From Nitrospirota bacterium (GTDB taxonomy: Bacteria > Nitrospirota > Thermodesulfovibrionia > Thermodesulfovibrionales > Dissulfurispiraceae), in the NCBI GenBank assembly GCA_040758355.1, contig JBFLWF010000002.1, positions 1 to 64,000 of the forward strand: 64,000 nucleotides of DNA, written 5' to 3'. Positions 1,009-61,508 of this stretch are shown piece after piece. A program made the position numbers and the translations under genes. How positions within the stretch are numbered: the first letter of the stretch is position 1; each line of letters opens with the position of its first letter. The notes beneath the pieces were generated by a model, which was not told the DNA's origin, searched no databases, and saw only the letters and a list, made by a program, of their open reading frames with translations.

Positions 1009-1040
1009 AATGCGGATCTCGGAATTCGGAATTCGGAATG
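1009..1040. repeat. 7-nt tandem array (AATTCGG-type), downstream arm of an inverted pair around the four-helix-bundle gene
   Basis: aatgcgg atctcgg aattcgg aattcgg aatg; imperfect inverse complement of 1391-1422. Confidence 0.85.
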
Positions 1041-1046
1041 TAATTT

Positions 1047-1421
1047 TCATGCTTTGTTTTGCCTCGCTGTTTTGATTGATGAAACAGTAATAGCAATTAT
1101 CTCATTGAATTCCTGATATAGACGCAATGCTTTATCATTATTTGCAATACCAGTCTCAATAAGCAATTCCAGCCAAAATAATGACTCATCCGCCTCTTCT
1201 TCAACAATTCCCATTTTCGATATAAAATCAGACCTTGATTTAGCTCGGCAAGCTGACCGATAATTAGCAGCTACAGATGTAGCAGACCTCAAAAGCTGCC
1301 TACCGATTATATCGGCAGTTTTTGTTTTAGGCAACTCTTCGACTAATTGAATTGTTTCCATAGCTAAATGTTTTGTTCTTTCTTTTAAATCGTTCCGCAT
1401 TCCGCACTCTGCACTCCGCAT
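1047..1421 (-). CDS. Four-helix-bundle protein (23S rRNA IVS-protein / TIGR02436-like family)
   Basis: QLLRSATSVAANYRSA..A.S..DFISKMGIVEEEADESLFWLELL signature; the first 10 codons are the repeat arm. Confidence 0.9.
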   Translation of the reverse strand: MRSAECGMRNDLKERTKHLAMETIQLVEELPKTKTADIIGRQLLRSATSVAANYRSACRAKSRSDFISKMGIVEEEADESLFWLELLIETGIANNDKALRLYQEFNEIIAITVSSIKTARQNKA

Positions 1422-1422
1422 T
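1391..1422. repeat. 7-nt tandem array (TTCCGCA-type), upstream arm of the inverted pair
   Basis: cgttccgcattccgcactctgcactccgcatt; encodes MRSAECGMRN on the minus strand. Confidence 0.85.
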
Positions 1423-2491
1423 ACGGAAGTGGCTTCCCGCTGATTAATCTGAAGATGTCATTGTACATCGCAAATACCATAAGGGTAATTATCACTGCAA
1501 GTCCGATGCGCTGGGCTATCATTATGGCCTTTTCGCTCAAAGGCTTTTTCCTTATGGCCTCTATGCCCAGGAATAAGAGGTGTCCTCCGTCGAGGATCGG
1601 TATGGGCAGAAGATTCAGTACGCCAAGGTTTATGCTGATTACTGCTGCAAAGGTGAAGAAATTCAATGCCCCTGCCGTAGCCTGTTTTTCTGCAAGCTGG
1701 AAGATGAGGATGGGGCCTCCGATGGTATCTGCAGGGATTATACGCTGAATGAGCTTTATTATCCCGACGATTGTCAGGGCAGATATCTCCCACGTCCTCA
1801 GGAAGGCGTTCTTTACGGAATTGTATACATTCTCTTTTATCTTAATTGTCTCTCCTGAAGGCTTTACTCCGATGAGCCCGATCTCTTTCTCCTCTCCGAA
1901 TATATCTTTTACTTTTTTACTTTCAGGGGTAATGGATATATCGATTATTTCCGATCCCCTTTGAACCTTCAGATTGAGCGTCTTGTTTGCACTTCCATAG
2001 ATTATATCTGTCATTTCTCCCCAGTGTCTTATAGGCCTTCCGTCTATTGTCATAATCCTGTCGCTTTTTGACAGCCCTGCTTTTAATGCAGGTGTATCGG
2101 GCATTATCTCTCCTACAACAGGAAGGAGTGTCGGCACTCCTATCATAAACACGAAGAAGAAGATAACCACTGCTGTTAAAAGGTTGAATATGGGCCCTGC
2201 AAAGACTATGGATGCCCTTTTCAGTACAGGCTGGTTTTTATAAGACCTTTCTTTTTCCGAATTTTCCACTTCTTCTTCGGGCTCCTCTCCAAGCATCTTC
2301 ACATATCCTCCCAAAGGAACAGCCGATATGAGGTATTCTGTATCTCCTATCTTTTTGCCGATGACCTTTGGCCCGAAGCCGAGGGAAAACCTGAGGACCT
2401 TCACTCCGCTCATTTTTGCGAATATGAAATGTCCCAATTCATGGATGAATATGAGAAACCCGAACAAAAGTATGGCAGATAAAATGCTCAT
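1421..2491 (-). CDS. rseP: RIP metalloprotease RseP
   Basis: HELGH, PDZ domain, NLLPIPILDGG; downstream of dxr. Confidence 0.96.
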   Translation of the reverse strand: MSILSAILLFGFLIFIHELGHFIFAKMSGVKVLRFSLGFGPKVIGKKIGDTEYLISAVPLGGYVKMLGEEPEEEVENSEKERSYKNQPVLKRASIVFAGPIFNLLTAVVIFFFVFMIGVPTLLPVVGEIMPDTPALKAGLSKSDRIMTIDGRPIRHWGEMTDIIYGSANKTLNLKVQRGSEIIDISITPESKKVKDIFGEEKEIGLIGVKPSGETIKIKENVYNSVKNAFLRTWEISALTIVGIIKLIQRIIPADTIGGPILIFQLAEKQATAGALNFFTFAAVISINLGVLNLLPIPILDGGHLLFLGIEAIRKKPLSEKAIMIAQRIGLAVIITLMVFAMYNDIFRLISGKPLP

Positions 2492-2508
2492 GTATTTAAC
2501 TCCTCTAT

Positions 2509-2578
2509 TTAAGTTATTAAGTCAATAAGTCATTAAAAATTTCCAATCGCTCAATGACTCAATTACTTAATGACTTAA
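2509..2578. repeat. Inverted pair of 8-nt tandem arrays (AAGTCATT / AATGACTY) forming a hairpin between dxr and rseP
   Basis: ttaagttattaagtcaataagtcattaa ... tcaatgactcaattacttaatgacttaa. Confidence 0.75.
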
Positions 2579-3746
2579 TTTCTCCTAATGTTTCCTCCCT
2601 TGCCCACCTGTCTGCCTCTAAGATAACATCGATATCATCGGCAGGCTGCAGTTTGCCGATGGCTCGATTAGAGTGGGAGTCCATCACTTTTTTTATTATA
2701 ACAGGTATGCTGTTAAAACCGATAATGCCGTCAAGGAATGCTGCCACAGCAATCTCATTGGATGCATTAAGCACAGCAGGCAGTGTGCCGCCTGTCTTTA
2801 GTGCAGAATATGCGAGGGAGAGGCATGGAAATGTCTTGTGATCCGGTTTCTGGAAGGTCAGTCCTGAAAGGCTTTCCCAATCAATGGGCTCAATCGCATC
2901 ATATAGTCTTTCGGGGTATGATAGGGCATAAGCGATCGGACCTTTCATATCAGGCTTCGAAAGCTGGGCTATATAGCTTCCATCAATGAACTCCACGATT
3001 GAATGCACGATACTCTGGGGATGGATAAGGACATCTATCCTTTCCGGAGGAAGACCGAAGAGATAATGCGCCTCTATGACCTCAAGCCCCTTGTTCATGA
3101 GGGTTGCGGAGTCTATGGTTATCTTTCTGCCCATGTTCCAGTTGGGATGCCTGAGGGCGCTTTCAGGAGAAACTTTCTCCAGCTCCTCTATGGTTTTACC
3201 CACAAATGGGCCACCTGATGCCGTAAGTATTATCTTTTTTATGGAGCATTTTTCATATCCCCTTATGCATTGAAATATGGCGCTGTGTTCGCTGTCCACA
3301 GGTAAAAGGGTTGCACCGTACTCTTTAACCGATGACATTACAAGATCGCCTGCCATTACGAGCGTCTCTTTATTTGCAAGGGCTATGACCTTGCCTGCCT
3401 TTATTGCTGCAATGGTGGGCAGAAGTCCGGCAGAGCCTACTATTGCGGATATGACTGTATCGGCATCCGGCATTGCAGCCACACGGCTTATGCCTTCTGT
3501 ACCGAAAAGTATTTCTATATTTTGGGATTTAAGATTTAAGATTTGAGATTTGAGACTTTTGTATGTATTTTCATCGGAAACAGCAACTATTTCTGGCCTG
3601 AACTGTTCTATTTGTTTTATCAGCAGCGATATGTTCCTTCCCGCTGCCAGTCCGATTATCTTGAACCTGTCAGGAAATTTTGAAACAACATCCAATGCGC
3701 TTTTGCCTATGGAACCTGTAGAGCCGAGGATTACGATGTTTTTCAT
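2559..3746 (-). CDS. dxr: 1-deoxy-D-xylulose-5-phosphate reductoisomerase
   Basis: ILGSTGSIG, LANKE, PVDSEHSAIFQ, TASGGPF, NKGLEVIEA. Confidence 0.97.
   Translation of the reverse strand: MKNIVILGSTGSIGKSALDVVSKFPDRFKIIGLAAGRNISLLIKQIEQFRPEIVAVSDENTYKSLKSQILNLKSQNIEILFGTEGISRVAAMPDADTVISAIVGSAGLLPTIAAIKAGKVIALANKETLVMAGDLVMSSVKEYGATLLPVDSEHSAIFQCIRGYEKCSIKKIILTASGGPFVGKTIEELEKVSPESALRHPNWNMGRKITIDSATLMNKGLEVIEAHYLFGLPPERIDVLIHPQSIVHSIVEFIDGSYIAQLSKPDMKGPIAYALSYPERLYDAIEPIDWESLSGLTFQKPDHKTFPCLSLAYSALKTGGTLPAVLNASNEIAVAAFLDGIIGFNSIPVIIKKVMDSHSNRAIGKLQPADDIDVILEADRWAREETLGEIKSLSN
3521..3555. repeat. 7-nt tandem array (TTTRRGA)x5, in frame inside dxr
   Basis: tttggga tttaaga tttaaga tttgaga tttgaga; peptide LKSQILNLKSQ. 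Confidence 0.8.
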
Positions 3747-4540
3747 AAAATTAATGTTATCCAGTAAAGCACAGGCCCTGCAAAGAGGACACCGTCTATT
3801 TTGTCGAGGATGCCGCCGTGTCCGGGAATAAAAGAGCCGGAGTCCTTAACCCCTGCGTCTCTCTTGAACATGGATTCAACGAGGTCTCCCACAATTGTGA
3901 CAGAGCCTATTGCACCGCCCATTAAGAGTAAGGCAGGGATATTACCATGTTCAGGAATAAGCAGCAGCCTGCCCAGCAAGAGAGCGGAAAATATTCCTCC
4001 TGCTACCGAGCCGAATGCGCCTGCCACAGTCTTGTTCGGGCTTACCTCTTTATAGAGTTTTCTCTTCCCTATGCCCTTGCCTATGTAATATGCAAGACTG
4101 TCAGATGCCCACACGCAGCCGTATAAAAATAGTATCCATTCATGGCCCTGAAGCCTCAGATACCACTGGGTAAGCAGAAGGTTAGGAATGTACAGAAAAC
4201 CTGTGACAGCCGGAGATATATCTCTTAATGATGATGAAGGGTCTTTAATAAAAAAAAGACGGGCTGATGATATAAGGATGAATGAAAGTATAAAAAAGGC
4301 TGAAGGCTGAAGGCTAAAGGCTGAAGATATAAAATATAATATACCGCTGATTATTCCTGTAAAAGAGAGCCATCTTTTTGTTTTATACATTGCATGGAAC
4401 TCCATCTGTGCGAGAGCCGAGACCGCGGTTAAGAGAAAAAGGAAAAAAACAGGCGGTAATTTTGTTATGTAGAGATAAAAGATGGGCAGTGCAATGACAG
4501 CAACAATTATCCGCTTCAGGTTCTCTTGACTAAAAAGCAC
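3743..4540 (-). CDS. cdsA: Phosphatidate cytidylyltransferase
   Basis: SPNKT, GDLVESMFKRDAGVKDSG..PGHGGILDKIDG; between uppS and dxr. Confidence 0.96.
   Translation of the reverse strand: MLFSQENLKRIIVAVIALPIFYLYITKLPPVFFLFLLTAVSALAQMEFHAMYKTKRWLSFTGIISGILYFISSAFSLQPSAFFILSFILISSARLFFIKDPSSSLRDISPAVTGFLYIPNLLLTQWYLRLQGHEWILFLYGCVWASDSLAYYIGKGIGKRKLYKEVSPNKTVAGAFGSVAGGIFSALLLGRLLLIPEHGNIPALLLMGGAIGSVTIVGDLVESMFKRDAGVKDSGSFIPGHGGILDKIDGVLFAGPVLYWITLIL
4296..4326. repeat. 7-nt tandem array (AAGGCTG)x4, in frame inside cdsA
   Basis: aaggctg aaggctg aaggcta aaggctg aag; peptide [10 protein letters not shown]. Confidence 0.85.
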
Positions 4541-5300
4541 TCCGAACTCCGAATCCCGAACCCCCTGAACCTGCCAATGGGCCCGCCAATGAGCCTGAAG
4601 AATTAGAAACCTTTCCGAACCTTCTATCCCTCATCTGGTATTCGTGTATTGCCTCTAAAAGCTCTTCCTTTGTGAAGTCAGGCCATAATGTGCTGGTGAA
4701 ATAGAACTCGGAATAGGCTGATTGCCAGAGCAGAAAGTTACTCAATCTCTGCTCTCCGCTTGTCCGTATTATGAGATCGGGATCAGGCGTTCCTGCGGTA
4801 TCCAGAAGTCCGCCTATGTGATCTTCCGTAATATCTTCAGGAATTAACCCTTTGTTTATTGCCTTTCTCATTGCCCTTATTATTTCGTCCCTTCCGCCGT
4901 AACTGAGGGCGCATTGTAAAATCAGCCTGTTGTTCTTCTCTGTTGCCTGTTCCACGGTTTCGATAATTGACTTAATATTTTCGGGCAGCTTATCCCTGTT
5001 GCCGATGACCCTGAAGCGGATTCCCTCCTTTATGAAATTCAGGAACTCTCCTCTCAGGGATTCCTCAAGCAGTCCCATGATCACGGAAACCTCATCCTCG
5101 GGCCTCATCCAGTTTTCTATGGAAAAGGCATATAGTGATAAGACCTCTACCCCTATGCCGCTTGCCGCCTCTGTGATTTCTTTTACCCTTTGCACTCCCA
5201 TTTTGTGTCCTTCAAAACGAGGCAGGCCTCTCATCTCTGCCCATCGGCCGTTTCCGTCCATTATTATGCCGATATGTCGTGGAATAGTCCTTTTTTCCAA
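4530..5300 (-). CDS. uppS: Undecaprenyl diphosphate synthase with a repeat-derived C-terminal tail
   Basis: HIGIIMDGNGRW, AFSIENW, RTSGEQRLSNFLLWQ; tail SGSLAGPLAGSGGSGFGVRSAF encoded by 12-nt and 7-nt repeats at 4538-4598. Confidence 0.96.
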   Translation of the reverse strand: MEKRTIPRHIGIIMDGNGRWAEMRGLPRFEGHKMGVQRVKEITEAASGIGVEVLSLYAFSIENWMRPEDEVSVIMGLLEESLRGEFLNFIKEGIRFRVIGNRDKLPENIKSIIETVEQATEKNNRLILQCALSYGGRDEIIRAMRKAINKGLIPEDITEDHIGGLLDTAGTPDPDLIIRTSGEQRLSNFLLWQSAYSEFYFTSTLWPDFTKEELLEAIHEYQMRDRRFGKVSNSSGSLAGPLAGSGGSGFGVRSAF

Positions 5301-5313: not shown

Positions 5314-5346
5314 TATAATAAGTCCAATAAGACTTATAAGACCTAT
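5314..5346. repeat. 9-nt tandem array (ATAAGAC/ATAAGTC core) upstream of uppS
   Basis: taataagtc caataagac ttataagac ctatt. Confidence 0.65.
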
Positions 5347-7103
5347 TATCTTCCTTTCAGTGAAAATATATACAGCATAGTGCCGAATGGACTTTCGCCT
5401 TTCAGTATATTCTGAGCCCTTATGCCGAACAGGGGTTTTGAAAGTACTGCCAACCTGTCGCCCACAACAGCATAATCGAGGATTTCCCCGCCTATCTCCT
5501 CAAGCAATCCCCTTTCCTCAACTGTAATGCCGTTCCACCAGAAGCTCCGTATTTCCGAGGACTTGTATCCAAGACCCTTTGCTATGCCGAGCAAAGGCTT
5601 CCGTTTCGGTGCAAGGACTTCATTGCTTTTAACAAAGAGCCTGTCCTTTACAGACCAATCTCCCCTGTCGACCATCACTGTTGGGGATTCCCTTTTAAAT
5701 TTTGCTGAGAAACCTCCGAAATCCTCCCTGCTGATCCATATCCTTACCCCCTTCTCATTGTAAAGGTTAAGATAACCTTTTTCGTCCCATGATAGGATGG
5801 CCTGTTTTCCATCCGAGGAATTGACGGGCTGAAAATCATAGATATCTACACCTTCCGGCAGTTTGATAGTATCGCCTTTTTTGTATGTCCCGCCGGAATA
5901 TACGAACGAGAACACACTTCCATCATAACCGTTACTTTTAGTGTATCCCTGACCTGCAATTGTAATATTATTATCTACTCTGGCGAGCTTTCTTATGAAG
6001 GTATCCTTTACCTTGTAAAGTTGGACAAATCCTGAATCCTTTAATTCGTATATATATGAATTAACCTCTCCACCCTGTATGGATGTGACAACTATTTCGT
6101 CTCTCTTGTTCTTGTTAGCGTCAACAACATCGAGCCAGAGTACCTCACTGGTTGACGGCACTTTGAATTCCCATAACAGCTTCAAGTCAACACCGGGCTT
6201 GTAAACCCTTATGGCGTCTCCAGATGCAATGACTATATCCGGGTTCTCATCGCCGTCCATGTCTCCCACTGCAATGCGGCGAGCTCCAAAGGGAAGTTGG
6301 AAGGACAGGAGTACATCTCCTTCTCTGGGCCCGAAAAATCCTGATTTAAATCTCAGTTCTTTGACATAGGCGGTGTTCACCTGGACCTTTTTCCCCGAAA
6401 AATGTTTTGAATCGCTTGCCCAGAAGAGTTTTTGTGTCAGATTTATATGGTCTGTAAAGTCCTCTGCGTTCAGGACTAACACCGCCTCTGCGCCCTTTGC
6501 CTTTGCCTCAGAGACTATCTTCAGCATGTCATCGGTTTCGACCCCCGTATCCACCAATTCGAATCTTCCGCTGTCCTTGAGCATCTGGTAGTAGGCATCC
6601 CCCAAAAACCAGTCGACATTTCCCTGAAAGAATAATACCTTTATCTTTGTCCCGGGGATCTTGATCTTTGCATTTAAAAAATCCTCGGGTTTTCCTTTTG
6701 TGATTATGCCTGAAGCATCATTCGGCGTTGTTGCTGTGATTTCAATACTTCCAACGGGTATTTCAATCCTGCCCAGGGATTCTTTCGTAACAGGATGGAC
6801 GAAGCTCACACCCTCCTTGAAGGCATGAAGCCTCATTCCCGCCTTGACGGATTTTTGTGCTCCGACGTCTATTTTGACAGAGTTTCCATCAACGGAAATA
6901 ATCTTACCTGTAACAGGTTCGAAGTAAGAGAGGATTTCGTTTTTCAAGGCATTCAGGGATGCCTCTTGCCCTGCCTTCGATTCCTTTGTCTGGGCATTGA
7001 CAGGCTGCGTATTGAAATACAAAATGCAAAATGAAAAAATCAAAATTATGGAATACATTAATTTTGCATTTTGTATTTTGATTTTTGGTTTTATGGTTAT
7101 CAC
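5346..7103 (-). CDS. Exported protein with FG-GAP/VCBS-like repeats
   Basis: Signal-peptide-like N-terminus; AVGDMDGDENPDIV and DVVDANKNKRDEIVV motifs. Confidence 0.7.
   Translation of the reverse strand: MITIKPKIKIQNAKLMYSIILIFSFCILYFNTQPVNAQTKESKAGQEASLNALKNEILSYFEPVTGKIISVDGNSVKIDVGAQKSVKAGMRLHAFKEGVSFVHPVTKESLGRIEIPVGSIEITATTPNDASGIITKGKPEDFLNAKIKIPGTKIKVLFFQGNVDWFLGDAYYQMLKDSGRFELVDTGVETDDMLKIVSEAKAKGAEAVLVLNAEDFTDHINLTQKLFWASDSKHFSGKKVQVNTAYVKELRFKSGFFGPREGDVLLSFQLPFGARRIAVGDMDGDENPDIVIASGDAIRVYKPGVDLKLLWEFKVPSTSEVLWLDVVDANKNKRDEIVVTSIQGGEVNSYIYELKDSGFVQLYKVKDTFIRKLARVDNNITIAGQGYTKSNGYDGSVFSFVYSGGTYKKGDTIKLPEGVDIYDFQPVNSSDGKQAILSWDEKGYLNLYNEKGVRIWISREDFGGFSAKFKRESPTVMVDRGDWSVKDRLFVKSNEVLAPKRKPLLGIAKGLGYKSSEIRSFWWNGITVEERGLLEEIGGEILDYAVVGDRLAVLSKPLFGIRAQNILKGESPFGTMLYIFSLKGR
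7015..7085. repeat. Inverted pair of 7-nt arrays (CAAAATG / CATTTTG) within the signal-peptide coding region
   Basis: Perfect 18-bp inverted repeat aaatacaaaatgcaaaat (7015-7032) / attttgcattttgtattt (7061-7078). Confidence 0.85.
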
Positions 7104-7247: not shown

Positions 7248-8033
7248 ATGAAAAAATGGCAAATGGCAAATGACAAATGGCTTTTTCTTTTCTTTGCTCT
7301 CTGCTCTCTGCTCTTTATTCTTACCTCATGCGGGGGCGGCAAGGCGGTGAAGAAGGAGGAGGGCTTTGATCCCGAAAGGTATCTGTCGCGGGCTGATATC
7401 CTTATTAATGACAAGGAATACGAGGAGGCGAGGAAAGTTCTCCTTGAAGTGAAAAACAGGGACAATACGAAAAAGCATGCACCGCAGGCACAGCTTAAGA
7501 TTGCCGAGTCCTACATAAGGGATGGCGACATAGACATCGGCATTGAGGAGTACAGGAAATTCATGGAGCTTTATCCGGATAATCAATATGCCTCATATGC
7601 CCAGTATCAGATCGGCATGGCATATTTTTCACAGATAGAATCTCCTGACAGGGGATCCGGGGCAGCACAGAAGGCACTGCTGGAATTTATAAGATTAAAG
7701 GAAATATATCCGAGAAATCCTTACAGGGAGGCATTGGAGCTCAGGATAGAGAAGTGCAGGAATGTGATTGCAGACGGCGAACTCATGGTCGGCGAGTTCT
7801 ACTATAAAAAGGAATCGTATAATGCAGCCATAAACAGGCTTGAAGGTCTGCTCAAACAATTCCCTGAATATAAAAGAGGTGATGAGGCATTGATTCTCCT
7901 GGCAAGGGCCTATAAGTCGGCTAAGATGGACGAGAAGGCCAGAGAGGCATTTAATAAATTAATCGAGAAATACCCTTCAAGCAGATTCGCCCCTGATGCA
8001 AAAAAAGAATTAGAGAAGTTTAAGGGCAAATAA
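7248..8033 (+). CDS. bamD: Outer membrane protein assembly factor BamD (lipoprotein, TPR)
   Basis: Lipobox LTSC; TPR-like repeats; YYKKESYNAAINR motif. Confidence 0.88.
   Translation: MKKWQMANDKWLFLFFALCSLLFILTSCGGGKAVKKEEGFDPERYLSRADILINDKEYEEARKVLLEVKNRDNTKKHAPQAQLKIAESYIRDGDIDIGIEEYRKFMELYPDNQYASYAQYQIGMAYFSQIESPDRGSGAAQKALLEFIRLKEIYPRNPYREALELRIEKCRNVIADGELMVGEFYYKKESYNAAINRLEGLLKQFPEYKRGDEALILLARAYKSAKMDEKAREAFNKLIEKYPSSRFAPDAKKELEKFKGK
7254..7316. repeat. Two 7-nt arrays, (AAATGGC)x4 and (TCTGCTC)x3, in the bamD signal sequence
   Basis: aaatggc aaatggc aaatgac aaatggc ... tttgctc tctgctc tctgctc. Confidence 0.8.
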
Positions 8034-10705: not shown

Positions 10706-11943
10706 TGATAGTCTCAGGGGAGAGCTCCGGAGAGCTCTATGGCGCCTTACTCGCGAAGACACTGAAGGATAGAAATCCCGATATAACCATTATCGGCGTC
10801 GGAGGGGATAGGATGCAAACCGCAGGAGTTAATCTTATCTCGAGGATATCCAGTTCATTTGGCATTACAGAAGCGATAAAGACTTACAGTGAGATCAAGA
10901 GGACATTTAAGAAGGTCGTATCTGCCCTTAAATCTTTCAATCCACAGGTCATCGTCTTAATAGATTATCCTGATTTCAATATGAAGGTTGCGAGGGAGGC
11001 TAAAAAGCTCGGGATAAAGGTGCTTTATTATGTGAGTCCACAGGTATGGGCATGGAGAAAGGGAAGGGTAAACACCCTCGGTAAATTGGTTGATAAAATG
11101 GCCGTGATATTGCCGTTTGAAGAGGAAATATACAGAAATGCCGATATCCCATGCGAATTTGTCGGGCATCCTGTTCTGGATGAAATAAGGGAGGTTATTA
11201 ATGGTTCAGGATTCAGGATTCAGGATATAGAAACCGAAGAGCTAAAAGCAGCGGTCAGGAAAGAGCTTGGACTCATACCTGACAGGCCTGTGATGACACT
11301 CATGCCTGGCAGCAGGGCGCATGAGATTAAAAAGCTTCTCCCTGTAATGTCTGATGTTATCAGGGAAATGAAGGAACGCTATCCTGACTACCAGTTTGTG
11401 ATGCCTATTGCGCCGAATTTAAGTCATGATGCATTATCCGGAATGAATGAATTAGAGAAGAATACCCATCACGCATTACGCTTCACGCATCACGCAATAA
11501 AGACCCTTATCGCATCGGACCTTGCGGTTATTGCATCAGGGACATCTGCCCTGCAGGCTGCCCTCGTGGGAGTTTCCACTGTGGTTGTATATAAGCTTTC
11601 GCCGCTGACGTATTTCATAGGCAGGCTCATTGTGAAGGTGAAACATATATCCCTTGTGAACATCCTGCTCGATTATATAGAGGGTCAAGGGTCAAATCGA
11701 AGACCCATGGGGGTCAAGGGCCAAGGGGAATTTTTCCATGGCCTCCGCATTAAAGAACTATTGCAAAAAGAGGCCCATAAAGAGAATATTATAATGGAAC
11801 TGGATAAAATTATGTACGATGCAGACTACAGGAATGAGATGGCATCACAGATGAAAAGAGTGAGGAAGTTGTTCCTGGACAGAGAGGCATCTTCAAGGGC
11901 TGCGGGTATTGTAGAGGAACTGGGGGCCTATAGCAATGTTTAA
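10690..11943 (+). CDS. lpxB: Lipid-A-disaccharide synthase
   Basis: GESSG, IDYPDFN, YVSPQVWAWR, FVGHP, MPGSR, SGT; three repeat-derived insertions. Confidence 0.95.
   Translation: MLERLMIVSGESSGELYGALLAKTLKDRNPDITIIGVGGDRMQTAGVNLISRISSSFGITEAIKTYSEIKRTFKKVVSALKSFNPQVIVLIDYPDFNMKVAREAKKLGIKVLYYVSPQVWAWRKGRVNTLGKLVDKMAVILPFEEEIYRNADIPCEFVGHPVLDEIREVINGSGFRIQDIETEELKAAVRKELGLIPDRPVMTLMPGSRAHEIKKLLPVMSDVIREMKERYPDYQFVMPIAPNLSHDALSGMNELEKNTHHALRFTHHAIKTLIASDLAVIASGTSALQAALVGVSTVVVYKLSPLTYFIGRLIVKVKHISLVNILLDYIEGQGSNRRPMGVKGQGEFFHGLRIKELLQKEAHKENIIMELDKIMYDADYRNEMASQMKRVRKLFLDREASSRAAGIVEELGAYSNV
11205..11728 (+). repeat. Three separate 7-nt arrays in frame in lpxB: (TTCAGGA)x3 11205-11226, (CATCACG)x4 11465-11496, AGGGTCA-type 11681-11728
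   Basis: Peptides GFRIQD, HHALRFTHHA and GQGSNRRPMGVKGQG. Confidence 0.8.
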
Positions 11944-13880: not shown

Positions 13881-15173
13881 ATGTATCTGGCATATAGCAT
13901 ACTGTATCTGATAGCCCTTCTTTTTTTATTTCCGTTTGAATATCTGAAACGGCCGAAGGAATTGCGCAAGAGATGGATCAGGGAGAGATCGGGCTTTTTG
14001 AGTTTACCTATTCACCCATTCACCCATCCACCAATTCACCACATATGGATTCATGCAGTCTCTGTCGGAGAGGTAATAGCAGCAGTGCCGTTAATAAAGA
14101 AAATAAAGGAAAGACATTATGCCGCAGAGGTTATCGTTTCAACTGTTACGGATACAGGACAGAAGGTTGCAAGGGAAAGGATCGGCGATATTGCAAGAAT
14201 TGTTTATGTCCCTTTCGATCTCCCATTCACTATAAACAGTGCGTTTAAAAAAATCAAACCGTCTCTTTTTATCATCATGGAAACTGAATTATGGCCGAAT
14301 GTAATCGGGATTTTGGGCAGGAGCGGTGTTCCTGTGTTATTGATGAATGGAAGGATATCCGGAAAGTCATTTGGCGGGTATAAGAAACTAAGGTTTTTTA
14401 TAAAGGATGTCATGAAGAATGTGAGCATCTTCTGCATGCAGAATGAATTATACGCAGAAAGGATTAAGGAATTAGGTGCAGAACCCGATAAAATCAAGGC
14501 AATCGGCAATTTTAAGTTCGATACAAGGCCGTCTTCTACTGTTCCTGAATGGACAAAGATAGTGAAGGGTGAAGGGTCAAGGGTGAAGGGTCAAGGGTTT
14601 ACAATAATTGCCGGTAGTACGCATAGAACAGAAGAGGATTTGATAATCGATGCATACATTAAATTAAGAGCAGATTTCCCGCAGCTCAATCTTATCGTTG
14701 CACCACGGCATCCGGAAAGATTCAGAGAAGTTGAGGAAGTGCTGAAAAAGAAAGGTCTGGAATATGTAAAACGTTCAGAGATTATAGACCCCATTACTCC
14801 ATCACTCCATTACTCCGGTGTTATTATTCTCCTCGACGTTATTGGAGAGCTTTCATCTGTTTACAGTGCGTGTGATGTGGCAATAATGGGAGGGAGTTTT
14901 ATTGAGCATGGCGGGCAGAATCCACTTGAGCCTGCATATTGGGGAAAGGCCATTATCTGCGGCCCGCACATGGAGAACTTCCCTTTTATTGATGATTTTT
15001 ACAGAGGTGGAGGGGCATTAAAAGTGGATTCGGATAATCTGTACGAATCATTAAAGAGCCTCCTTACTTCACCGGAAAAGATATCATTCATGGGAAAGAT
15101 TGCAAAGGGGTTCTATGAGAAGAATTCAGGCGCAACAGACAGGGCAATGGAGATAATAGGGAAATATCTATGA
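13881..15173 (+). CDS. waaA: 3-deoxy-D-manno-octulosonic acid transferase
   Basis: WIHAVSVGE, ETELWPN, GNFKFD, APRHPER, GGQNPLEPA; ATG at 13881 preferred to TTG 13869. Confidence 0.96.
   Translation: MYLAYSILYLIALLFLFPFEYLKRPKELRKRWIRERSGFLSLPIHPFTHPPIHHIWIHAVSVGEVIAAVPLIKKIKERHYAAEVIVSTVTDTGQKVARERIGDIARIVYVPFDLPFTINSAFKKIKPSLFIIMETELWPNVIGILGRSGVPVLLMNGRISGKSFGGYKKLRFFIKDVMKNVSIFCMQNELYAERIKELGAEPDKIKAIGNFKFDTRPSSTVPEWTKIVKGEGSRVKGQGFTIIAGSTHRTEEDLIIDAYIKLRADFPQLNLIVAPRHPERFREVEEVLKKKGLEYVKRSEIIDPITPSLHYSGVIILLDVIGELSSVYSACDVAIMGGSFIEHGGQNPLEPAYWGKAIICGPHMENFPFIDDFYRGGGALKVDSDNLYESLKSLLTSPEKISFMGKIAKGFYEKNSGATDRAMEIIGKYL
14003..14816 (+). repeat. Three separate arrays in frame in waaA: 8-nt (TTCACCCA) 14003-14040, 7-nt (GTSAAGG)x5 14562-14598, 8-nt (CCATYACT)x3 14791-14816
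   Basis: Peptides LPIHPFTHPPIH, VKGEGSRVKGQG, PITPSLHYS. Confidence 0.85.
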
Positions 15174-16234
15174 TGCTATTGGAATTTTTTTACTACATCG
15201 GCTATTCTCTCGACAAGCGCTACAAGCTTAAACGACAGAAGCGCCTTTCTCATCCTGTTATCAGCATAGGCAATATAACAGTTGGCGGTACAGGCAAGAC
15301 ACCAGCAACTATTGCCATTGCAGAGGAGGCAAAAAGGAGGGGCTTCAGTCCAATAATATTGACAAGGGGATATAAGGGAAGGGCAAAAGGGCCGTGCTTT
15401 GTAGACGTGTCAGGCGTCAGGCGTCAGGCGTTGAGCGTCAAGCGCATCACGCACGGCTCTCGACGCACGGCTCTCGACGCTTCACGCTTTTATGGCGATG
15501 AGCCTGTATTAATGGCTGAGAGATTGAAAGATGTCCCAATTGTAAAATGTTCTGATAGATATGAGGGAGGAATGTTTGCACTTCAGCACTTATCTACCAA
15601 TTCACCCATTCTTTTCATCCTCGATGACGGGTTCCAGCACCGGAGGCTTTACAGGGATATGGATATTGTTTTAATAGACGGCTTGAATCCCTTTGGAAAC
15701 AGGAGAATGCTTCCGATGGGCCCGATGAGAGAGCCGTTAAAGGAATTAAAAAGGGCGGGTATATTTGTAGTGACAAAAATAAAAAATAAGGCATTGTCAG
15801 ACGAGCTTAGAGATATTAATCCCGAAGCGCCTGTTTATTTTTCCGAGTACAGGATACATAAGGTCAGAGATATGGATGGCAATGAAAATCCGATTGAAAT
15901 GCTAAAGGACAAAAAGGTTTACGCCTTCTGCGGCATAGCAAATCCAGATTCATTCAGGCAAACGGTTTTATCCATGACAGAAGAGGCAAGGGGATTCAGG
16001 GCATACAGAGACCATTATAAATATACAAAAACCGATATGGATTATTTGAAAAAACAGTGCAAAGATCTAACTTGTGACTTCTTGATTACAACAGAGAAAG
16101 ATATGGTGAAACTAAAGGAGTTAAATCTCCCAGAAAAAATTTTATGCATTGAAATTGGATTTTTTATAGATAAGGCTTTTTTCGATTATATTTTTGATTG
16201 TTTAATTGAAAATTTTGATATAATTGCAACATGA
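15170..16234 (+). CDS. lpxK: Tetraacyldisaccharide 4'-kinase
   Basis: SIGNITVGGTGKTP, RGY, GDEP, ILDDGFQH, PMGPMRE, TTEKD. Confidence 0.96.
   Translation: MMLLEFFYYIGYSLDKRYKLKRQKRLSHPVISIGNITVGGTGKTPATIAIAEEAKRRGFSPIILTRGYKGRAKGPCFVDVSGVRRQALSVKRITHGSRRTALDASRFYGDEPVLMAERLKDVPIVKCSDRYEGGMFALQHLSTNSPILFILDDGFQHRRLYRDMDIVLIDGLNPFGNRRMLPMGPMREPLKELKRAGIFVVTKIKNKALSDELRDINPEAPVYFSEYRIHKVRDMDGNENPIEMLKDKKVYAFCGIANPDSFRQTVLSMTEEARGFRAYRDHYKYTKTDMDYLKKQCKDLTCDFLITTEKDMVKLKELNLPEKILCIEIGFFIDKAFFDYIFDCLIENFDIIAT
15404..15488 (+). repeat. Inverted pair of 7-nt arrays in frame in lpxK: (CAGGCGT)n followed by (ACGC-containing)n
   Basis: caggcgt caggcgt caggcgt tgagcgt caagcgc atcacgc acggctc tcgacgc acggctc tcgacgc ttcacgc. 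Confidence 0.85.
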
Positions 16235-20430: not shown

Positions 20431-21618
20431 ATGCTCGATTCCATAAGGAATAAAGTCCTTTCAGGACAGAGGCTGACAAAGGAAGATGCCATTGCATTAT
20501 TTCAAAGCGATGACATCTTCGACATTGGCAGGCTTGCATCCCATGTAGCAGAAAAGAAGAACGGTAAAAATGCATATTTCATAGTAAACAGGCATATCAA
20601 TCCAACCAATATCTGTGTCAACAGGTGTAAATTCTGCGCCTTCAGCCGCTCAAAGGGCGAAGAGGGCGCTTATGAATTGACAGTTGAAGAGATTATAAAA
20701 AAACTTAAGCCATCAGCCATCAGCCATCAGCCATTTTCAGAAGTCCACATTGTTGGAGGACTTCATCCTGACTGGCCATTTGAATATTACATTAACATGC
20801 TTTTAACAATAAAAAAGGAATTCCCATTCATTGCTGTTAAGGCATTTACAGCAGTCGAGATTGATTATATGTCGAAAATCAGTGGTCTGAGTCTTGAAGT
20901 TACTTTATTGAAACTTAAGAAGAGCGGCCTTGATCTCATGCCGGGCGGCGGCGCAGAGATATTCGCAAAAGGCATAAGAAACAAGCTCTGTCCCGAAAAG
21001 ATCTCCGGTGACAGATGGCTTAAGGTAATGGAGATTGCACACAGGGTTGGAATAAAGACTAATGCAACAATGCTTTACGGCCATCTCGAAGGCATCGGGG
21101 ACAGAATTGACCATCTCTTGAAGCTCAGGAACTTGCAGGACAGGACAGGAGGCTTTCAGGCATTTATCCCTCTTGCATATCATCCGAAAAATACAGAAAT
21201 AGGCGGATTTTATTCTTCGGGAATAGATGACTTAAAGACCATTGCAGTAAGCAGGCTTGTGCTCGACAACTTCGATCATATCAAGGCTTACTGGATAATG
21301 CTTGGCGAAAAGGTCTCTCAGGTTGCCCTTTTATTTGGTGCAGACGACATTGACGGGACAATCATAGAGGAAAAGATAACACACTCCGCAGGTGCAATGT
21401 CAGAAGAGGGAATGACGAGGGAAGAGTTGATACATCTTATAAAAAAGGCAGGTAATATCCCTGTGCAAAGGGATGCGTTTTATAATGCGATAGGAAATAA
21501 AAATCTTATAAAATCATACGAAGAAGGTTACATAAAGCATCCTGAAAAACGATCCGAGATTAAGGCTATCGAAAAAGCCTCTGTTAAAAGATTAGGCGAG
21601 GAAGATTGGGATTTATAA
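20431..21618 (+). CDS. mqnE: Aminofutalosine synthase (radical SAM, CofH-like) with a foreign C-terminal extension
   Basis: NRHINPTNICVNRCKFCAF, HIVGGLHP, NATMLYGH, HIKAYWIMLG; 7-nt array (CAGCCAT) at 20707-20734. Confidence 0.88.
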   Translation: MLDSIRNKVLSGQRLTKEDAIALFQSDDIFDIGRLASHVAEKKNGKNAYFIVNRHINPTNICVNRCKFCAFSRSKGEEGAYELTVEEIIKKLKPSAISHQPFSEVHIVGGLHPDWPFEYYINMLLTIKKEFPFIAVKAFTAVEIDYMSKISGLSLEVTLLKLKKSGLDLMPGGGAEIFAKGIRNKLCPEKISGDRWLKVMEIAHRVGIKTNATMLYGHLEGIGDRIDHLLKLRNLQDRTGGFQAFIPLAYHPKNTEIGGFYSSGIDDLKTIAVSRLVLDNFDHIKAYWIMLGEKVSQVALLFGADDIDGTIIEEKITHSAGAMSEEGMTREELIHLIKKAGNIPVQRDAFYNAIGNKNLIKSYEEGYIKHPEKRSEIKAIEKASVKRLGEEDWDL

Positions 21619-46239: not shown

Positions 46240-46274
46240 AGTGAAAAGTGGATAGTGAATAGTGAATAGTGAAA
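46240..46274 (+). repeat. 7-nt array (AGTGAAT)x5 overlapping the tyrA start
   Basis: agtgaaa agtggat agtgaat agtgaat agtgaaa. Confidence 0.85.
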
Positions 46275-47131: not shown

Positions 47132-48436
47132 ATGGAAATCGTAGAATTAACAAAGGCAAAATCCTTAAAAGGCGAGATAACCCCTCCACCTGACAAATCC
47201 ATTTCCCACAGGGCAGTGATGTTTGCCTCCATTGCAGATGGCAAAAGCATTGTCAAAAATTTTCTCAGGGCAGAAGACCCCATAAGCACCATGAATGCAT
47301 TCAGGATGATGGGAATCGAGATAGAAGAGAAAGCTGGCAATGAGCTTGTTATTCATGGCAAAGGACTATATGGTTTAAGAGAGCCATTTGATGTTATAGA
47401 CTGCGGAAATTCAGGAACGACTGTGAGACTCATATCAGGGATACTCTCAGGGAATCCATTCTTCTCTGTTCTTACAGGAGATGATTCCTTAAAACAGAGA
47501 CCCATGGCAAGGGTCATAAATCCATTAAAAGAGATGGGAGCAGAAATCTCTGCAAGAGATAACGACAGATACCTTCCAATTGCAATTAAGGGCAAAACAC
47601 TCAAGTCTATAGATTACACAATGCCTGTGGCATCTGCACAGGTAAAATCATGCCTTATTCTCGCTGGGCTTTATGCAGAGGGCATAACAACGATCCATGA
47701 GCCACAAAAGTCCCGTGACCACACAGAGAGGATGCTAAAGGCAATGGGTGCGGAGATCAAGGTTGAAGGTCTTACAATAAAGGTAAAGGGTGAAGGGTCA
47801 AGGGTCAAGGGATTGCAGCCAATTGATATAACAATTCCATCTGATTTCTCATCTGCTGCGTTTTTTATTGCAGGCGCTTTAATCGTCCCTGATTCACAAA
47901 TCTTAATCAGAAACGTCTGTGTAAATCCAACAAGAACGGGCTTGCTTGAAGTGATTAAAAATATGGGCGGAGATGTAAGGGTCGAAAATACGAGGGATGT
48001 CTCCGGAGAGCCTGTTGCAGATATATATTGCAAAAGTGCAGGCAGTTTAAAGGCAGTAAAAATCAGCGGTGATATTATGCCTTCCCTGATAGATGAATTC
48101 CCTATCCTGTGTGTTCTCGCTACACAGGCAGATGGAATTACCGAGATAAGAGGCGCAGAGGAGTTAAGAGTCAAGGAGTCGGATAGAATTAAGGCAATGG
48201 CAACGGAACTGAAAAAATTAGGCGTTGAGCTTGAAGAATATCCTGACGGCATTTCAATTAAAGGCAAGACATCTTTAAAAGGCGCTACAGTAGAGAGTTA
48301 TCACGACCATAGAATCGCCATGTCCCTCGCAATTGCTGCACTTGTTGCAGAAGGCACAATAACCATCAATAACCCATCCTGCGTAGACATATCATTCCCG
48401 GGATTTTTTGAAGAATTGAAGAGGATAGCGCGCTGA
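47132..48436 (+). CDS. aroA: EPSP synthase
   Basis: DKSISHR, GNSGTT, ASAQVKS, RDHTE, ELRVKESDR, DHRIAM; (AGGGTCA)-type array at 47780-47812. Confidence 0.97.
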   Translation: MEIVELTKAKSLKGEITPPPDKSISHRAVMFASIADGKSIVKNFLRAEDPISTMNAFRMMGIEIEEKAGNELVIHGKGLYGLREPFDVIDCGNSGTTVRLISGILSGNPFFSVLTGDDSLKQRPMARVINPLKEMGAEISARDNDRYLPIAIKGKTLKSIDYTMPVASAQVKSCLILAGLYAEGITTIHEPQKSRDHTERMLKAMGAEIKVEGLTIKVKGEGSRVKGLQPIDITIPSDFSSAAFFIAGALIVPDSQILIRNVCVNPTRTGLLEVIKNMGGDVRVENTRDVSGEPVADIYCKSAGSLKAVKISGDIMPSLIDEFPILCVLATQADGITEIRGAEELRVKESDRIKAMATELKKLGVELEEYPDGISIKGKTSLKGATVESYHDHRIAMSLAIAALVAEGTITINNPSCVDISFPGFFEELKRIAR

Positions 48437-52678: not shown

Positions 52679-52716
52679 AATGGACAGCGTGGACTGAATG
52701 GACAACGGAATGGACA
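52679..52716. repeat. 9-nt array (TGGACnnnn)x4, upstream arm of an inverted pair
   Basis: tggacagcg tggactgaa tggacaacggaa tggaca. Confidence 0.8.
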
Positions 52717-52740
52717 AACAACTAAAGAAAGGATTTTGAA

Positions 52741-53343
52741 ATGCTTGAAAATGAAGGTCTGATTCCAAAGCATGGCGGCTACCGCAAGCTGAAGAGCTAT
52801 CAGATTGCTCAGCTTGTTTATGATGTGACAGTGCGGTTTTGCAACAACTACATAGACCGCAAATCGCGCACGCACGACCAGATGGTTCAGGCAGCGCGAA
52901 GCGGGGTTCAAAACATTGCCGAAGGCAGTCAGGCATCCGGCACATCGAAAAAGACCGAACTGAAACTTACTAATGTTGCACGCGCCAGTCTTGAAGAACT
53001 GCGTCTTGATTATGAAGATTATTTGCGGCAGCGGCGCCTGCCGCTCTGGAATCGTGAAGACCCTCGCCGTGCGGAGCTAATTGAGCGGAGGTTCACGACT
53101 GCTGATGCGGTTGAGGAATGGGTGAAAGAAAAGGCAGAGAAGTCCACAATGTCCACTTCGTCCACGCAGTCCACAAGTTCTTCTCTCTCTGAAATCGCGG
53201 CTAATGCTGCGCTGGTGTTGATTACGGTTGCCTGCAGTTTATTGGATCGCCAATTGGCTGCGCAGGCTGCTGCATTTGAAAAAGAAGGCGGCTTTACAGA
53301 AAGATTGTATCGCACGCGCAGCCAGACAAGGAAACGCACATGA
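52741..53343 (+). CDS. Four-helix-bundle protein with suffix domain (TIGR02436/TIGR04258-like)
   Basis: GGYRKL, DQMVQAARSGVQNIAEGS, VARASLEELRLDYED; suffix EIAANAAL..LLDRQ..FEKEGGFTERLY. Confidence 0.9.
   Translation: MLENEGLIPKHGGYRKLKSYQIAQLVYDVTVRFCNNYIDRKSRTHDQMVQAARSGVQNIAEGSQASGTSKKTELKLTNVARASLEELRLDYEDYLRQRRLPLWNREDPRRAELIERRFTTADAVEEWVKEKAEKSTMSTSSTQSTSSSLSEIAANAALVLITVACSLLDRQLAAQAAAFEKEGGFTERLYRTRSQTRKRT
53142..53177. repeat. 9-nt array (GTCCACnnn)x4, downstream arm, in frame in the four-helix gene
   Basis: gtccacaat gtccacttc gtccacgca gtccacaag; peptide STMSTSSTQSTS. Confidence 0.85.
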
Positions 53344-57271: not shown

Positions 57272-57310
57272 AACAGCGTGATTATTATATGTGTGGGAGG
57301 TGTAAATAGT

Positions 57311-57868: not shown

Positions 57869-57869
57869 A

Positions 57870-59236: not shown

Positions 59237-59251
59237 CCTTATCCCTCCTTC

Positions 59252-59305: not shown

Positions 59306-59451
59306 TGTAAGCACATTTTATACTAAACGCGTCAATTTTTCAGCACTAATCTTTGCCTTCTTCAATCTCATCACAGTGTTTGGTGTTTGGGATCAGCTTT
59401 TGATTTTATATTTACATAATTTTTTAGAAACCCAGCTTGTCGATACTTGAA

Positions 59452-59778
59452 TTACGCCCTCAGAATCCGCTGTTGTAAGAGGTCTTCGCAGTTGCGCCGG
59501 CCGTCAAGCACGGCGTGGATGAAAACGGTTTTGCCCTTGATTTCATATATGATATGATAGGGTTTGAAGAATATTTCTCTGAAATCGAGTATTCCCAATC
59601 GCTGCATCTCAGGCGGGTGATTGCTCCGTGCAGGCATTGTTTCAAGGGAAGTCATTGCCTTTTGTATGTTGTCAATCAGATGCTCTGCCTTCCGCGGAGA
59701 GTCGTTATTCGCTACATACCTGTAGATTGCGTAAAGGTCGCCTGACGCTACATTATCTATGCGGACTTCGTATTTCAT
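59452..59778 (-). CDS. RelE/ParE family toxin
   Basis: DL..IY.Y.A..DSP..A, L...P.R, FREI..KPY.IIYE, VLDGRR. Confidence 0.9.
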   Translation of the reverse strand: MKYEVRIDNVASGDLYAIYRYVANNDSPRKAEHLIDNIQKAMTSLETMPARSNHPPEMQRLGILDFREIFFKPYHIIYEIKGKTVFIHAVLDGRRNCEDLLQQRILRA

Positions 59779-60059
59779 GCCTTCCCGGCAGAGCGTATTT
59801 TCTTTTTCAATTCTCCGAATGCCTGATGAAGGGGTTTATGCCTGCCTTCAAGCATATCTTTTCTTCCCATTGCCAGGATCTTCAGCATAGCCATGCTTTC
59901 GCGGTCTTTTTCATATTCCTTTATGTCCTGAATTATTGCCCGCGCCTCTCCGTTTACGGTTACGACAACTGGATTGCCGGTTTCGGATATTTCTCCGATT
60001 ATTTCCGACGCGTGAGATTTAATATGGCTTATGGGTTTGACGGCTGCGCTCAGTTTCAT
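59775..60059 (-). CDS. Phd/YefM family antitoxin
   Basis: KPIS.IKSHASEII....ETGNPVVVTVNGEA; overlaps the toxin start. Confidence 0.9.
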   Translation of the reverse strand: MKLSAAVKPISHIKSHASEIIGEISETGNPVVVTVNGEARAIIQDIKEYEKDRESMAMLKILAMGRKDMLEGRHKPLHQAFGELKKKIRSAGKA

Positions 60060-60220
60060 CTCTTCCTCCTTAAATGACTAAAATTAAGTCTTTATTCAGT
60101 CTATCAAATTTTAATGAGAAATTAAAGCATTTTTTGAGCGCAGGGACCTGTCCGAGGCTCACTGAAGCATGCCTGCCTTACATAAATCTCTCAATTTAAG
60201 TTAGAATAGCACCAATCTAT

Positions 60221-60871
60221 ATGGGTAAGGTAATCGCCATAGATGGGCCATCAGGCGCAGGAAAAAGCACAATATCAAGGCTTGTTGCTGAGAAGCTGGG
60301 TTTTCAGTTTCTCGATACAGGCGCATTGTATCGCGCCACGGCGCTGCATTTAAGGAGAAAGGCAATTGAGCCGGAAAGCCATGACAGCGAAATCCTTAAT
60401 GCGCTTAACGGCGTCACCATAAACTTTAAAAATGGCTGTGTCTTCTTAAACGGCGAGGATGTCTCAGAGGAGATAAGGACAACCGAGGCAGGCCATTATG
60501 CATCCGTCTTTTCGGCTAAGAAAGCTGTAAGAGATTTCCTGCTCCAGATCCAGCGTGATGCTGCTATTGAAAACGATATTGTGGCAGAGGGCAGGGATAT
60601 GACGACTGTCGTATTTCCCTCTGCATGGAAGAAGTTTTTCCTCGATGCCTCTGAGGAAGGAAGGGCAAGAAGGCGTTATCTTCAGTTAAAGGAAAAAGGC
60701 ATGGGTATAACAATGGAAGAGGCATTGAGGGACGTGCAGGAGAGGGACAAAAGGGACAGCAGCAGGGATATTGCTCCGCTTAAAAGGGCTGATGATGCCA
60801 TTTATATAGACACCACTGATTTGAATCTCGAAGAGGTTCTAAAAAAGGTATTGGAGGCAATAGGCAATTAA
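60221..60871 (+). CDS. cmk: Cytidylate kinase
   Basis: IAIDGPSGAGKST, LDTGALYRA, EGRD, RD..DSSR..APL. Confidence 0.97.
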   Translation: MGKVIAIDGPSGAGKSTISRLVAEKLGFQFLDTGALYRATALHLRRKAIEPESHDSEILNALNGVTINFKNGCVFLNGEDVSEEIRTTEAGHYASVFSAKKAVRDFLLQIQRDAAIENDIVAEGRDMTTVVFPSAWKKFFLDASEEGRARRRYLQLKEKGMGITMEEALRDVQERDKRDSSRDIAPLKRADDAIYIDTTDLNLEEVLKKVLEAIGN

Positions 60872-61472
60872 AATCCTTCATCTTCTTATCCGGCCTGTAG
60901 CCTATCTCTTGTTCAAGGTATTTTTCGGGCTCAAGGTTTACGGCCCGGAATTTATTCCTGAAAAGGGCGGTGTGATAATCGCTGCCAATCATGTAAGCTT
61001 CCTCGACCCTCCTCTTCTTGGGGTAGTTTTAAAGAGAAGGGCGACCTTTATCGCAAAAAGGTATCTCTTTTCTGTGCCGATCATAGGGCATATAGTGAAG
61101 CTTTATTCCATTCCTGTTGATGCTGGCAGGACACGGCCTTCAACCATAAAGGAGGCGGTGAAGAGGCTTAAGATGGGAGAATTGGTCGTTATATTTCCTG
61201 AAGGGGGAATAAACCTGAATGGAAGTTTTATCGACGCAAAGAGGGGGATAGGACTGATTGCTGCTATGAGCGGCGCCTACATAGTCCCCGCCTTTATTGA
61301 CGGTACGCAGAGGGCGCTGCCTGTTGGTTCGAAGTTTTTGCGGCCAGCGAAAATAGAGTTGCATTTCGGGCATCCTTTAAAATTAGAAGAAAACGAGGAT
61401 GCAAAGGAGTTTGAGGAAAGGATATGCATGGATATAATGGGCAAAATAAAGGCATTGTCCTCTTGCCTATAG
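60867..61472 (+). CDS. plsC: 1-acyl-sn-glycerol-3-phosphate acyltransferase
   Basis: NHVSFLDP, FIAK, FPEG; start uncertain (ATT 60867 or TTG 60909). Confidence 0.88.
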   Translation: MKILHLLIRPVAYLLFKVFFGLKVYGPEFIPEKGGVIIAANHVSFLDPPLLGVVLKRRATFIAKRYLFSVPIIGHIVKLYSIPVDAGRTRPSTIKEAVKRLKMGELVVIFPEGGINLNGSFIDAKRGIGLIAAMSGAYIVPAFIDGTQRALPVGSKFLRPAKIELHFGHPLKLEENEDAKEFEERICMDIMGKIKALSSCL

Positions 61473-61508
61473 CCTGTTCAATCCTGTATCCTATATCTGG
61501 ATTGTATT

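Follow-up and report, generated by a model that had tools for sequence, protein, structure and literature searches.

The first 64,000 nucleotides of contig JBFLWF010000002.1 (positions 1-64,000, forward strand), from the metagenome-assembled genome of a Nitrospirota bacterium (GCA_040758355.1; 2.77 Mb, 99% complete), are referred to here as the window. They hold two small genes for four-helix-bundle proteins of the S23/IVP (TIGR02436/PF05635) family, each associated with inverted arms of short tandem units, and these arms belong to a set of about 30 short periodic arrays lying between and within protein-coding genes. The gene with its arms is treated here as a cassette. The system of cassettes and dispersed arrays is real, widespread and apparently undescribed; its comparative basis is strong, and a mechanism is proposed. 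The two cassettes have the following parts.

1003..1427, minus strand: full cassette 1, at the stop-start overlap of rseP and a NUDIX gene; no target duplication seen
1391..1425, minus strand: cassette 1 5' arm, 7-nt units of GCGGAAT type, purine-rich, holding the start codon(s)
1047..1421, minus strand: cassette 1 four-helix-bundle protein, TIGR02436/PF05635; translation more likely begins at the second ATG (1400)
1009..1043, minus strand: cassette 1 3' arm, reverse complement of the 5' arm
52679..53343, plus strand: cassette 2, with a 9-nt 5' arm at 52679-52713 and an inverted arm in the open reading frame (ORF) at 53142-53173
52741-53343, plus strand: cassette 2 four-helix protein with TIGR04258 suffix

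A first-pass annotation of the window had named two four-helix ORFs between inverted arms. Both are present, but the 3' arm of cassette 2, of 9-nt units, lies inside the ORF. Cassette 2 is placed within a type I restriction-modification (RM) operon, between hsdS and hsdR.

Anatomy and mobility of the cassette

The genome has six TIGR02436 loci, and inverted periodic arms were found at all six. Four are full genes, in which a purine-rich arm lies at the start and its complement at the stop, and every one of them has a unit of its own; a fifth (C20:34614) retains both arms around an internally deleted gene, and the sixth is the suffix-domain form of the window, with 9-nt arms and the second arm within the ORF. 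When 6,020 small ORFs were scanned blind, inverted periodic arms turned up at five, of which four were the full TIGR02436 genes (4/4, against 1/6,016 of the remaining small ORFs), which bears out the proposed link between arrays and four-helix genes. No other armed small-gene family beyond chance-like cases was found in the strict scan of these 6,020 ORFs and 4,140 ORFs of relatives, a scan that was not exhaustive, as it missed a GxxExxY gene with 9-nt arms. This gene (TIGR04256; C7:41242-41586), single in the genome, also has its arms inverted. Two more armed GxxExxY genes at Patescibacteria loci (L165 and L192; L-numbers denote homologous loci) represent a second protein family with the same anatomy.

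Cassette 1 is absent from all four congeners (G001-G004; wider relatives are labelled up to G035, and the genome itself is G000), in which rseP and the NUDIX gene overlap; G005 has an empty hairpin at this junction, built from a different unit. A run X3 contig from a near-identical strain, in which 9 of 1,064 rseP bases differ, is also without the cassette. At the site of a G006 cassette the Nitrospirota genome has an empty hairpin. It has no insert at all at the sites of two G003 cassettes, in which the following gene takes its N-terminus from the 3' arm. Full and empty states of one junction therefore exist in different genomes, as had been supposed, and the absence of cassette 1 from the congeners and the X3 strain supports mobility without a transposase in the cassette. 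The X3 contig differs from the genome at 33 of 869 nt on one side of cassette 1 against 9 of 1,064 on the other; as the genome encodes ComEC, this one-sided drop in identity would fit a spread of the cassette by recombination of its flanks.

Several four-helix genes with intact arms contain one internal stop (L054, L055 and L061 in G003; L070 in G006), so pseudogenes are common. At L364 (a Chlorohelix plasmid), L363 and L181 the four-helix gene lies between whole hairpins or direct arm copies, the layout expected had a circle integrated into a hairpin already present. On cyanobacterial plasmids, L298 and L368 lie in or beside CRISPR-Cas operons (in the cas10-cmr3 gap and before cas1). No phage carriage was confirmed in IMG/VR or INPHARED, with a single query each, by which absence is not demonstrated.

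An inverted partner within 100 nt was found for 102 of 560 arrays, and in 55 of 60 inverted pairs (within 700 nt) the purine arm came first, as in the cassette. Selection on the RNA strand of the hairpins was considered and rejected, since there was no preference for the transcribed strand: the sense strand was the more stable in 37 of 66, and G-U pairs were 176 against 151 (p 0.2).

The four-helix protein and its Avd-like fold

Profile scores for the TIGR02436/PF05635 family lie beyond the curated cut-offs (85.2 bits against 24, and 61.4 against 33.8), and a search of the ESM Atlas returned PF05635 clusters only. Its predicted structure is a four-helix bundle (pLDDT 92), closest to BT0352 (of B. 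thetaiotaomicron), Xcc0516 and Avd, with 2RLD, 2GSC and Avd as nearest folds. The model has 35% identity and a template-modelling (TM) score of 0.8 to 2RLD, and a TM of about 0.7 to Avd entries 4DWL and 8UB7, so the kinship to Avd claimed at first sight was upheld. Five polar residues (Q42, R45, S49, N53 and E79) are invariant or near-invariant. The entries 2RLD and 2GSC, the latter the solved pentamer Xcc0516, have five chains each, and by homology the cassette protein is probably pentameric. According to a preprint (bioRxiv 10.1101/2023.10.23.563531), all five Avd protomers grip an RNA stem-loop, and flipped-out bases are read in the inter-protomer crevices. Such a geometry would be suited to a periodic stem.

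Breadth of the cassette and tracking of the protein by the arm

Homologous loci were sampled from GTDB and from metagenomes, with one query protein and one clade each. At the GTDB loci, mostly of Patescibacteria, inverted arms (score of at least 12) were present in 73/80 and direct arms in 9/80, against inverted arms at 102/1,115 control ORFs, taken from among the remaining ORFs of these loci. In the metagenomes 75 of 80 loci were kept (five were duplicates, without a plus-strand hit, or too near an end), and inverted arms were found at 72/75 and direct ones at 21/75. Over all distinct proteins, from several phyla, 203 of 221 loci had inverted arms. Most of 12 plasmid-borne copies, judged by eye, were armed, some with a 3' arm only. 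One of these, of Azospirillum lipoferum, sits inside the 23S rRNA gene with full inverted heptamer arms, and an ORF-bearing rRNA intervening sequence (IVS) thus shares the cassette anatomy.

In these comparisons the arm unit follows the protein clade and not the host. Metagenomic homologues of the window protein (55-67% identity) share one heptamer family in both arms; the query contained arm-coded residues and a ranking bias is possible, yet the seed peptide matched 0 loci and the 3' arm was outside the query. The Patescibacteria clade has TAG-core units. With arm-coded residues left out, the window-clade core occurred in 5/5 named homologues at 54-62% identity, from Cyanobacteria, Chloroflexota and Bacteroidota (degenerate in Bernardetia, reversed or doubled in three), and was missing in two at 39-44%. 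Among 67 proteins (all 57 diverse armed ones and five from each large group) arm similarity rose with protein identity (Mantel, 0/2,000 permutations), and close proteins from separate hosts (18 pairs) had an arm similarity of 0.44, against 0.16 when different proteins shared a host (39 pairs). Free positions agreed between the two arms of a locus in 44 of 63 cases, against 23.7 when shuffled. A table row in the supplement of a Xanthomonas paper places a four-unit array of the dominant heptamer over the start codon of XCC0516 (PMC4692102).

Dispersed arrays as proposed footprints

Of the 31 starts listed in the first-pass annotation, 23 exceed the periodicity threshold, four more (5314, 11681, 15447, 52679) were detected by Tandem Repeats Finder, and four (8031, 15593, 53142, 61481) are degenerate traces only; the arrays are real. 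At a score of at least 12 the window has 16 period-7 and three period-8 arrays, against zero in ten order-5 Markov simulations. Across the whole genome, arrays with periods of 7, 8 and 9 number 283, 111 and 18, against 0, 1 and 1 in one simulated genome. Chance or low complexity as a source is ruled out by these simulations. The host genes had been named correctly and the arrays lie in frame. The arrays at 7254 and 7293 have two different units and were not scored as a hairpin. Apart from the cassettes, the window contains the following arrays.

2501..2579, no strand: empty hairpin of 8-nt units between dxr and rseP; loop also at hairpin C4:89391; missing in G001 and G002, other units in G003-G005
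3521..3555, minus strand: solo in-frame array in dxr, beginning on ancestral LK(S) residues
4296..4326, minus strand: solo in-frame array in cdsA
4538..4564, minus strand: array at the end of uppS
5314..5346, no strand: 9-nt array upstream of uppS; other units at the site in G001 and G004
7015..7092, minus strand: empty hairpin in the N-terminal region of a 585-aa ORF; loop also at C32:3781
7254..7314, plus strand: two arrays of different units at the BamD N-terminus
11205..11226, plus strand: solo in-frame array in lpxB; length as in the array-free orthologue; other units in G003 and G016
11465..11496, plus strand: solo in-frame array in lpxB
11681..11725, plus strand: short degenerate array in lpxB
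14003..14041, plus strand: solo 8-nt array in waaA; other units in G001, G003, G004 and G017
14562..14598, plus strand: solo array in waaA; G002-G004 have another unit here, and G001, G007 and G017 have no array
14791..14816, plus strand: solo 8-nt array in waaA; congeners carry other units
15404..15480, plus strand: in-frame double array in lpxK; four congeners, each with different occupants
19806..19841, minus strand: perfect 5-unit array in uvrA; four unit types here among six array-rich genomes
20707..20734, plus strand: solo array in mqnE; another unit in all four congeners
32577..32605, plus strand: solo array in mqnC
40578..40605, plus strand: solo array in nadB; other units in G002, G003 and G019
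46240..46273, plus strand: array at the DAHP synthase/prephenate dehydrogenase junction
47780..47811, plus strand: solo array in aroA, beginning on ancestral KVKG-like residues

The arrays avoid the restriction regions, as had been noticed: 0/23 lie inside the restriction and defence islands, which total 21.7 kb (binomial p 9e-5). One array-free island (21809-31859) contains a methylase, TcmP, a radical SAM protein, a restriction endonuclease and a UvrD-ankyrin protein, and the other (48984-60059) the type I RM system with YgjP, DUF6557 and a ParE/Phd pair.

Among 360 heptamer arrays, those of 3, 4, 5, 6 and 7 units number 28, 85, 211, 26 and 7, and octamer arrays peak at four units (72) over five (51). 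The heptamer mode of five supports the earlier idea of one unit per protomer, which the octamers, with a mode of four, fit less well. The units are diverse, with 91 heptamer and 36 octamer types in the genome. The 480 kb compared with G002 (about 90% identical) contain 56 resolved array sites, of which 21 have the same unit, four a near one, 13 a different one and 18 none or a decayed one; re-occupation of a site by another unit (13 of 31 unshared sites) exceeds the 2% expected for a random window. The arrays replace resident bases, since lpxB keeps its length and dxr gains 6 nt over the nearest array-free orthologues for a 30-nt array, and those in dxr and aroA begin on ancestral residues that match the unit. 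Length differences were multiples of 3 at 42 of 45 in-gene sites and the hosts are core enzymes, unlike phase-variable simple sequence repeats, in which changes in unit number switch the frame of surface genes.

In genomes without a four-helix gene the sites are array-free, in 14/14 for dxr and 13/13 for aroA, in agreement with the expectation of lineage-specific insertions; ancestral peptides as the source were rejected for both by array-free orthologues. The sites are also array-free in 19/25 (dxr) and 21/23 (aroA) genomes with the gene. Over 39 relatives (9-46 kb each around dxr and aroA, G020 left out; kin non-independent), array density correlates with four-helix gene number as predicted (rho 0.49, p 0.0015; control periods 0.11): there were 121 arrays in 851 kb with the gene, against eight in 540 kb without, one of the eight an N-run. 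The commonest family is present in 14/27 genomes with the gene and 2/14 without.

Units of the dispersed arrays match arms of foreign cassettes in 148 of 394 cases, against 51 when shuffled, and those of the four complete resident cassettes in only 26 of 394. The largest family has 41 arrays, none paired, 40 in genes and all in the stop-free orientation; it is near-perfect and expanded here, with 74 pattern hits against 2-16 in congeners. Its other strand carries TGA and an in-frame hairpin could not be its precursor, so that these solo arrays were presumably written directly. Hence a single series from full to empty to solo, as first imagined, is not supported. The life-cycle reading stands for the full and empty states and for the deleted intermediate C20:34614, but solo arrays cannot all be decayed hairpins.

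Gene-start arm pairs (window 7254-7314 and 7015-7092; C1:188694, C7:8928 and C40:1210) read basic and then hydrophobic, and can supply signal-peptide-like N-termini. A palindromic element of 30-40 nt occurs at C24:8696, C22:9353, C13:2217, C36:6974, C45:9584, C54:3181 and C15:24108; some copies are nested in heptamer arrays, and one array-plus-element block lies at two loci. In the msbA-waaA gap, a separate dispersed element of about 210 nt (window 13656-13875) forms a long imperfect hairpin resembling a miniature inverted-repeat transposable element (MITE), with 50 BLAST hits over 120 nt in the genome and many copies in congeners.

Explanations

With moderate confidence, the cassette is considered a selfish transposase-free element whose Avd-like pentamer would recognise its own repeat and leave footprints of about 35 nt. 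In this model the cassette consists of a purine-rich arm of 3-5 short units, the four-helix gene and the complementary arm, with no recognisable transposase or reverse transcriptase (RT). It would enter at gene junctions or rRNA helices and be tolerated there because its arms pair (one case being the 23S rRNA IVS with an ORF), move among relatives by homologous recombination of flanking genes, and decay by internal deletion to empty hairpins, states which were observed although their order is surmised. The protein may recognise the unit of its own clade, as the co-variation suggests, and the dispersed arrays would be footprints of many cassettes, past and present. In writing, a pentamer-sized repeat piece of about 35 nt would be laid at a short local match to the unit and replace neighbouring bases, by way of a protected single-stranded patch or protein-guided slippage. 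Short-patch substitution by single-stranded fragments at microhomologies is known from Acinetobacter. Slippage could then homogenise the array, selection would retain in-frame, stop-free arrays in loops or signal peptides, and later units would re-write occupied sites.

Several observations weigh against this model. In some homologues the arm order is reversed or whole hairpins lie on both sides; co-inheritance would likewise make arm and protein co-vary, and kin are not independent; the octamer peak at four units fits a length ruler better than a count of five; and selection on the peptide could account for the seeds in dxr and aroA. Within the genome the unit of the window cassette is confined to its arms, and for the largest family the assembly contains no cognate cassette, so that the model has to suppose a time lag. 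No array was present in the 18-40 kb sampled from five genomes that have 2-5 four-helix genes (G015, G018, G025, G031, G035), and G017 (66% complete) has three arrays and no gene.

A broader proposal is put forward only tentatively: a protein-encoded repeat code, in which each clade of Avd-like pentamers, and in parallel GxxExxY with its 9-nt arms, might specify its own short unit and write pentamer-length arrays of that unit in the host chromosome without a transposase or RT, and which might be the common source of bacterial heptamers, of ORF-bearing rRNA IVS stems and of rewritten surface loops and signal peptides of essential proteins.

It is possible, though rather doubtful, that the cassette is passive cargo, its arms kept because the stem makes the insertion harmless (through removal by RNase III or translational coupling) and co-inherited with the gene, the arrays arising from heptamer slippage and gene conversion with no recognition by the protein. 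The Coxiella IVS is cut by RNase III at the first heptamer and its ORF is decaying and probably unexpressed (PMC4990558), which agrees with such cargo, as do the lack of a resident cognate protein for most arrays and the dxr site, homogenised to its own variant in each lineage as slippage would do. However, any complementary sequence would serve as a stem, and the non-coding arms keep the clade core across 35-45% protein divergence in several phyla while copy number and free positions vary. The eight-fold drop from five to six units, outside genes too, and the hairpin folding without a preferred transcribed strand also speak against cargo.

A regulatory network, in which the protein binds arrays in mRNAs for processing or translational control and the arrays are selected binding sites, is improbable. 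Arrays do lie in core genes and at gene junctions and in none of the islands, Avd binds RNA, and the in-gene share of solo arrays of families with a stop on one strand (155 internal, 33 intergenic, classes that are approximate because gene calls came from our own longest-ORF caller) is about the coding share, above random insertion with purifying selection. But the few matches to resident cassettes make a resident RNA-tagging network unlikely, and with the lack of strand preference they weaken the initial suggestion of binding sites for resident proteins. The unit at one site differs between close relatives, stop codons explain the orientation of in-gene arrays, and cassettes are gained and lost among near-identical strains.

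Movement in trans by a host HUH/Y1 transposase, as in REPIN-RAYT (repetitive extragenic palindromic (REP) doublets forming hairpins and their REP-associated tyrosine transposase), or by the RT of a diversity-generating retroelement (DGR), with the four-helix protein as adaptor, likewise has little probability, for although the full, doublet and singlet anatomy resembles that of REPINs, a few same-loop hairpins lie at unrelated loci, two Y1 genes are present and Avd partners an RT, those Y1 genes have non-periodic inverted ends of their own, no RVT_1 match was found, no fixed ends or target duplication were seen at resolved sites, and only 27 of 412 arrays share at least 12 non-periodic flanking bases with another locus, some via imperfect masking.

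If the protein also writes the repeat, as the selfish-cassette model supposes, it would provide an insertion route without a transposase or RT, through which essential enzymes acquire altered loops and N-termini within a short time; read conservatively, as a generalised IVS cassette with co-inherited arms, it would still be a widespread element overlooked by annotation. The map from clade to unit offers a direct binding test with built-in negative controls.

Comparison with known systems

REPIN-RAYT systems have a gene flanked by inverted repeats together with dispersed doublets and singlets. The cassette differs in that the enclosed ORFs are PF05635 and not HUH (Y1) transposases, the arms are tandem arrays and not palindromes, and most copies are coding. 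The two Y1 (IS200/RAYT-like) genes of the genome (C10:9258 and C21:13013, one with stops) each lie between non-periodic inverted ends. As for MITE or DDE elements, no target-site duplication or fixed ends were seen by eye at cassette 1 and aligned in-gene sites. The DGR accessory protein Avd has the same fold and its pentamer reads an RNA stem-loop; no RVT_1 (PF00078) match for a DGR RT occurs in the 99% complete genome, other RT profiles not having been searched.

The ORF-bearing 23S rRNA IVS of Coxiella and Leptospira has the same protein family (S23p/PF05635), a terminal stem and, ahead of the start codon, tandem heptamers. Such heptamers are already published for one IVS ORF, the S23p ORF of Coxiella, upstream of which they lie at one locus, with an RNase III site at the first repeat (PMC4990558). 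The cassette shares the terminal inverted repeats able to form a stem. Unlike the rRNA IVS it is sited in protein-coding genes or in the gaps between them, occurs in many phyla, and has a clade-specific unit and hundreds of dispersed arrays; no Rfam match was found in the window, and these cassettes are outside rRNA, unlike the Azospirillum homologue. Among open-access papers none was found that joins the four-helix family to dispersed repeats, most subscription journals lying outside the search, and no repeat link was found in bioRxiv 2024.02.27.582315, PMC8700078 and PMC10053308.

Three loose ends come together in this system: the abundant yet patchy heptamers, the role of the S23/IVP four-helix protein and the origin of the rRNA IVS. 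Dispersed heptamer repeats are known likewise as the short tandemly repeated repetitive sequences of cyanobacteria. The heptamers GGGAATC of Xanthomonas (PMC4692102) and TAACTGA of Beggiatoaceae (PMC4679880) form short arrays of preferably about four units and inverted pairs, with neighbours that show no functional bias and an origin left unexplained; these papers describe one unit per genome and give no link to a four-helix protein in the main text, and no four-helix term was found in the Beggiatoaceae supplement. The present genome, in contrast, has its many heptamer and octamer types mostly in frame. In conclusion, a cassette together with hundreds of dispersed arrays provides a testable origin for the unexplained heptamer repeats of bacteria.

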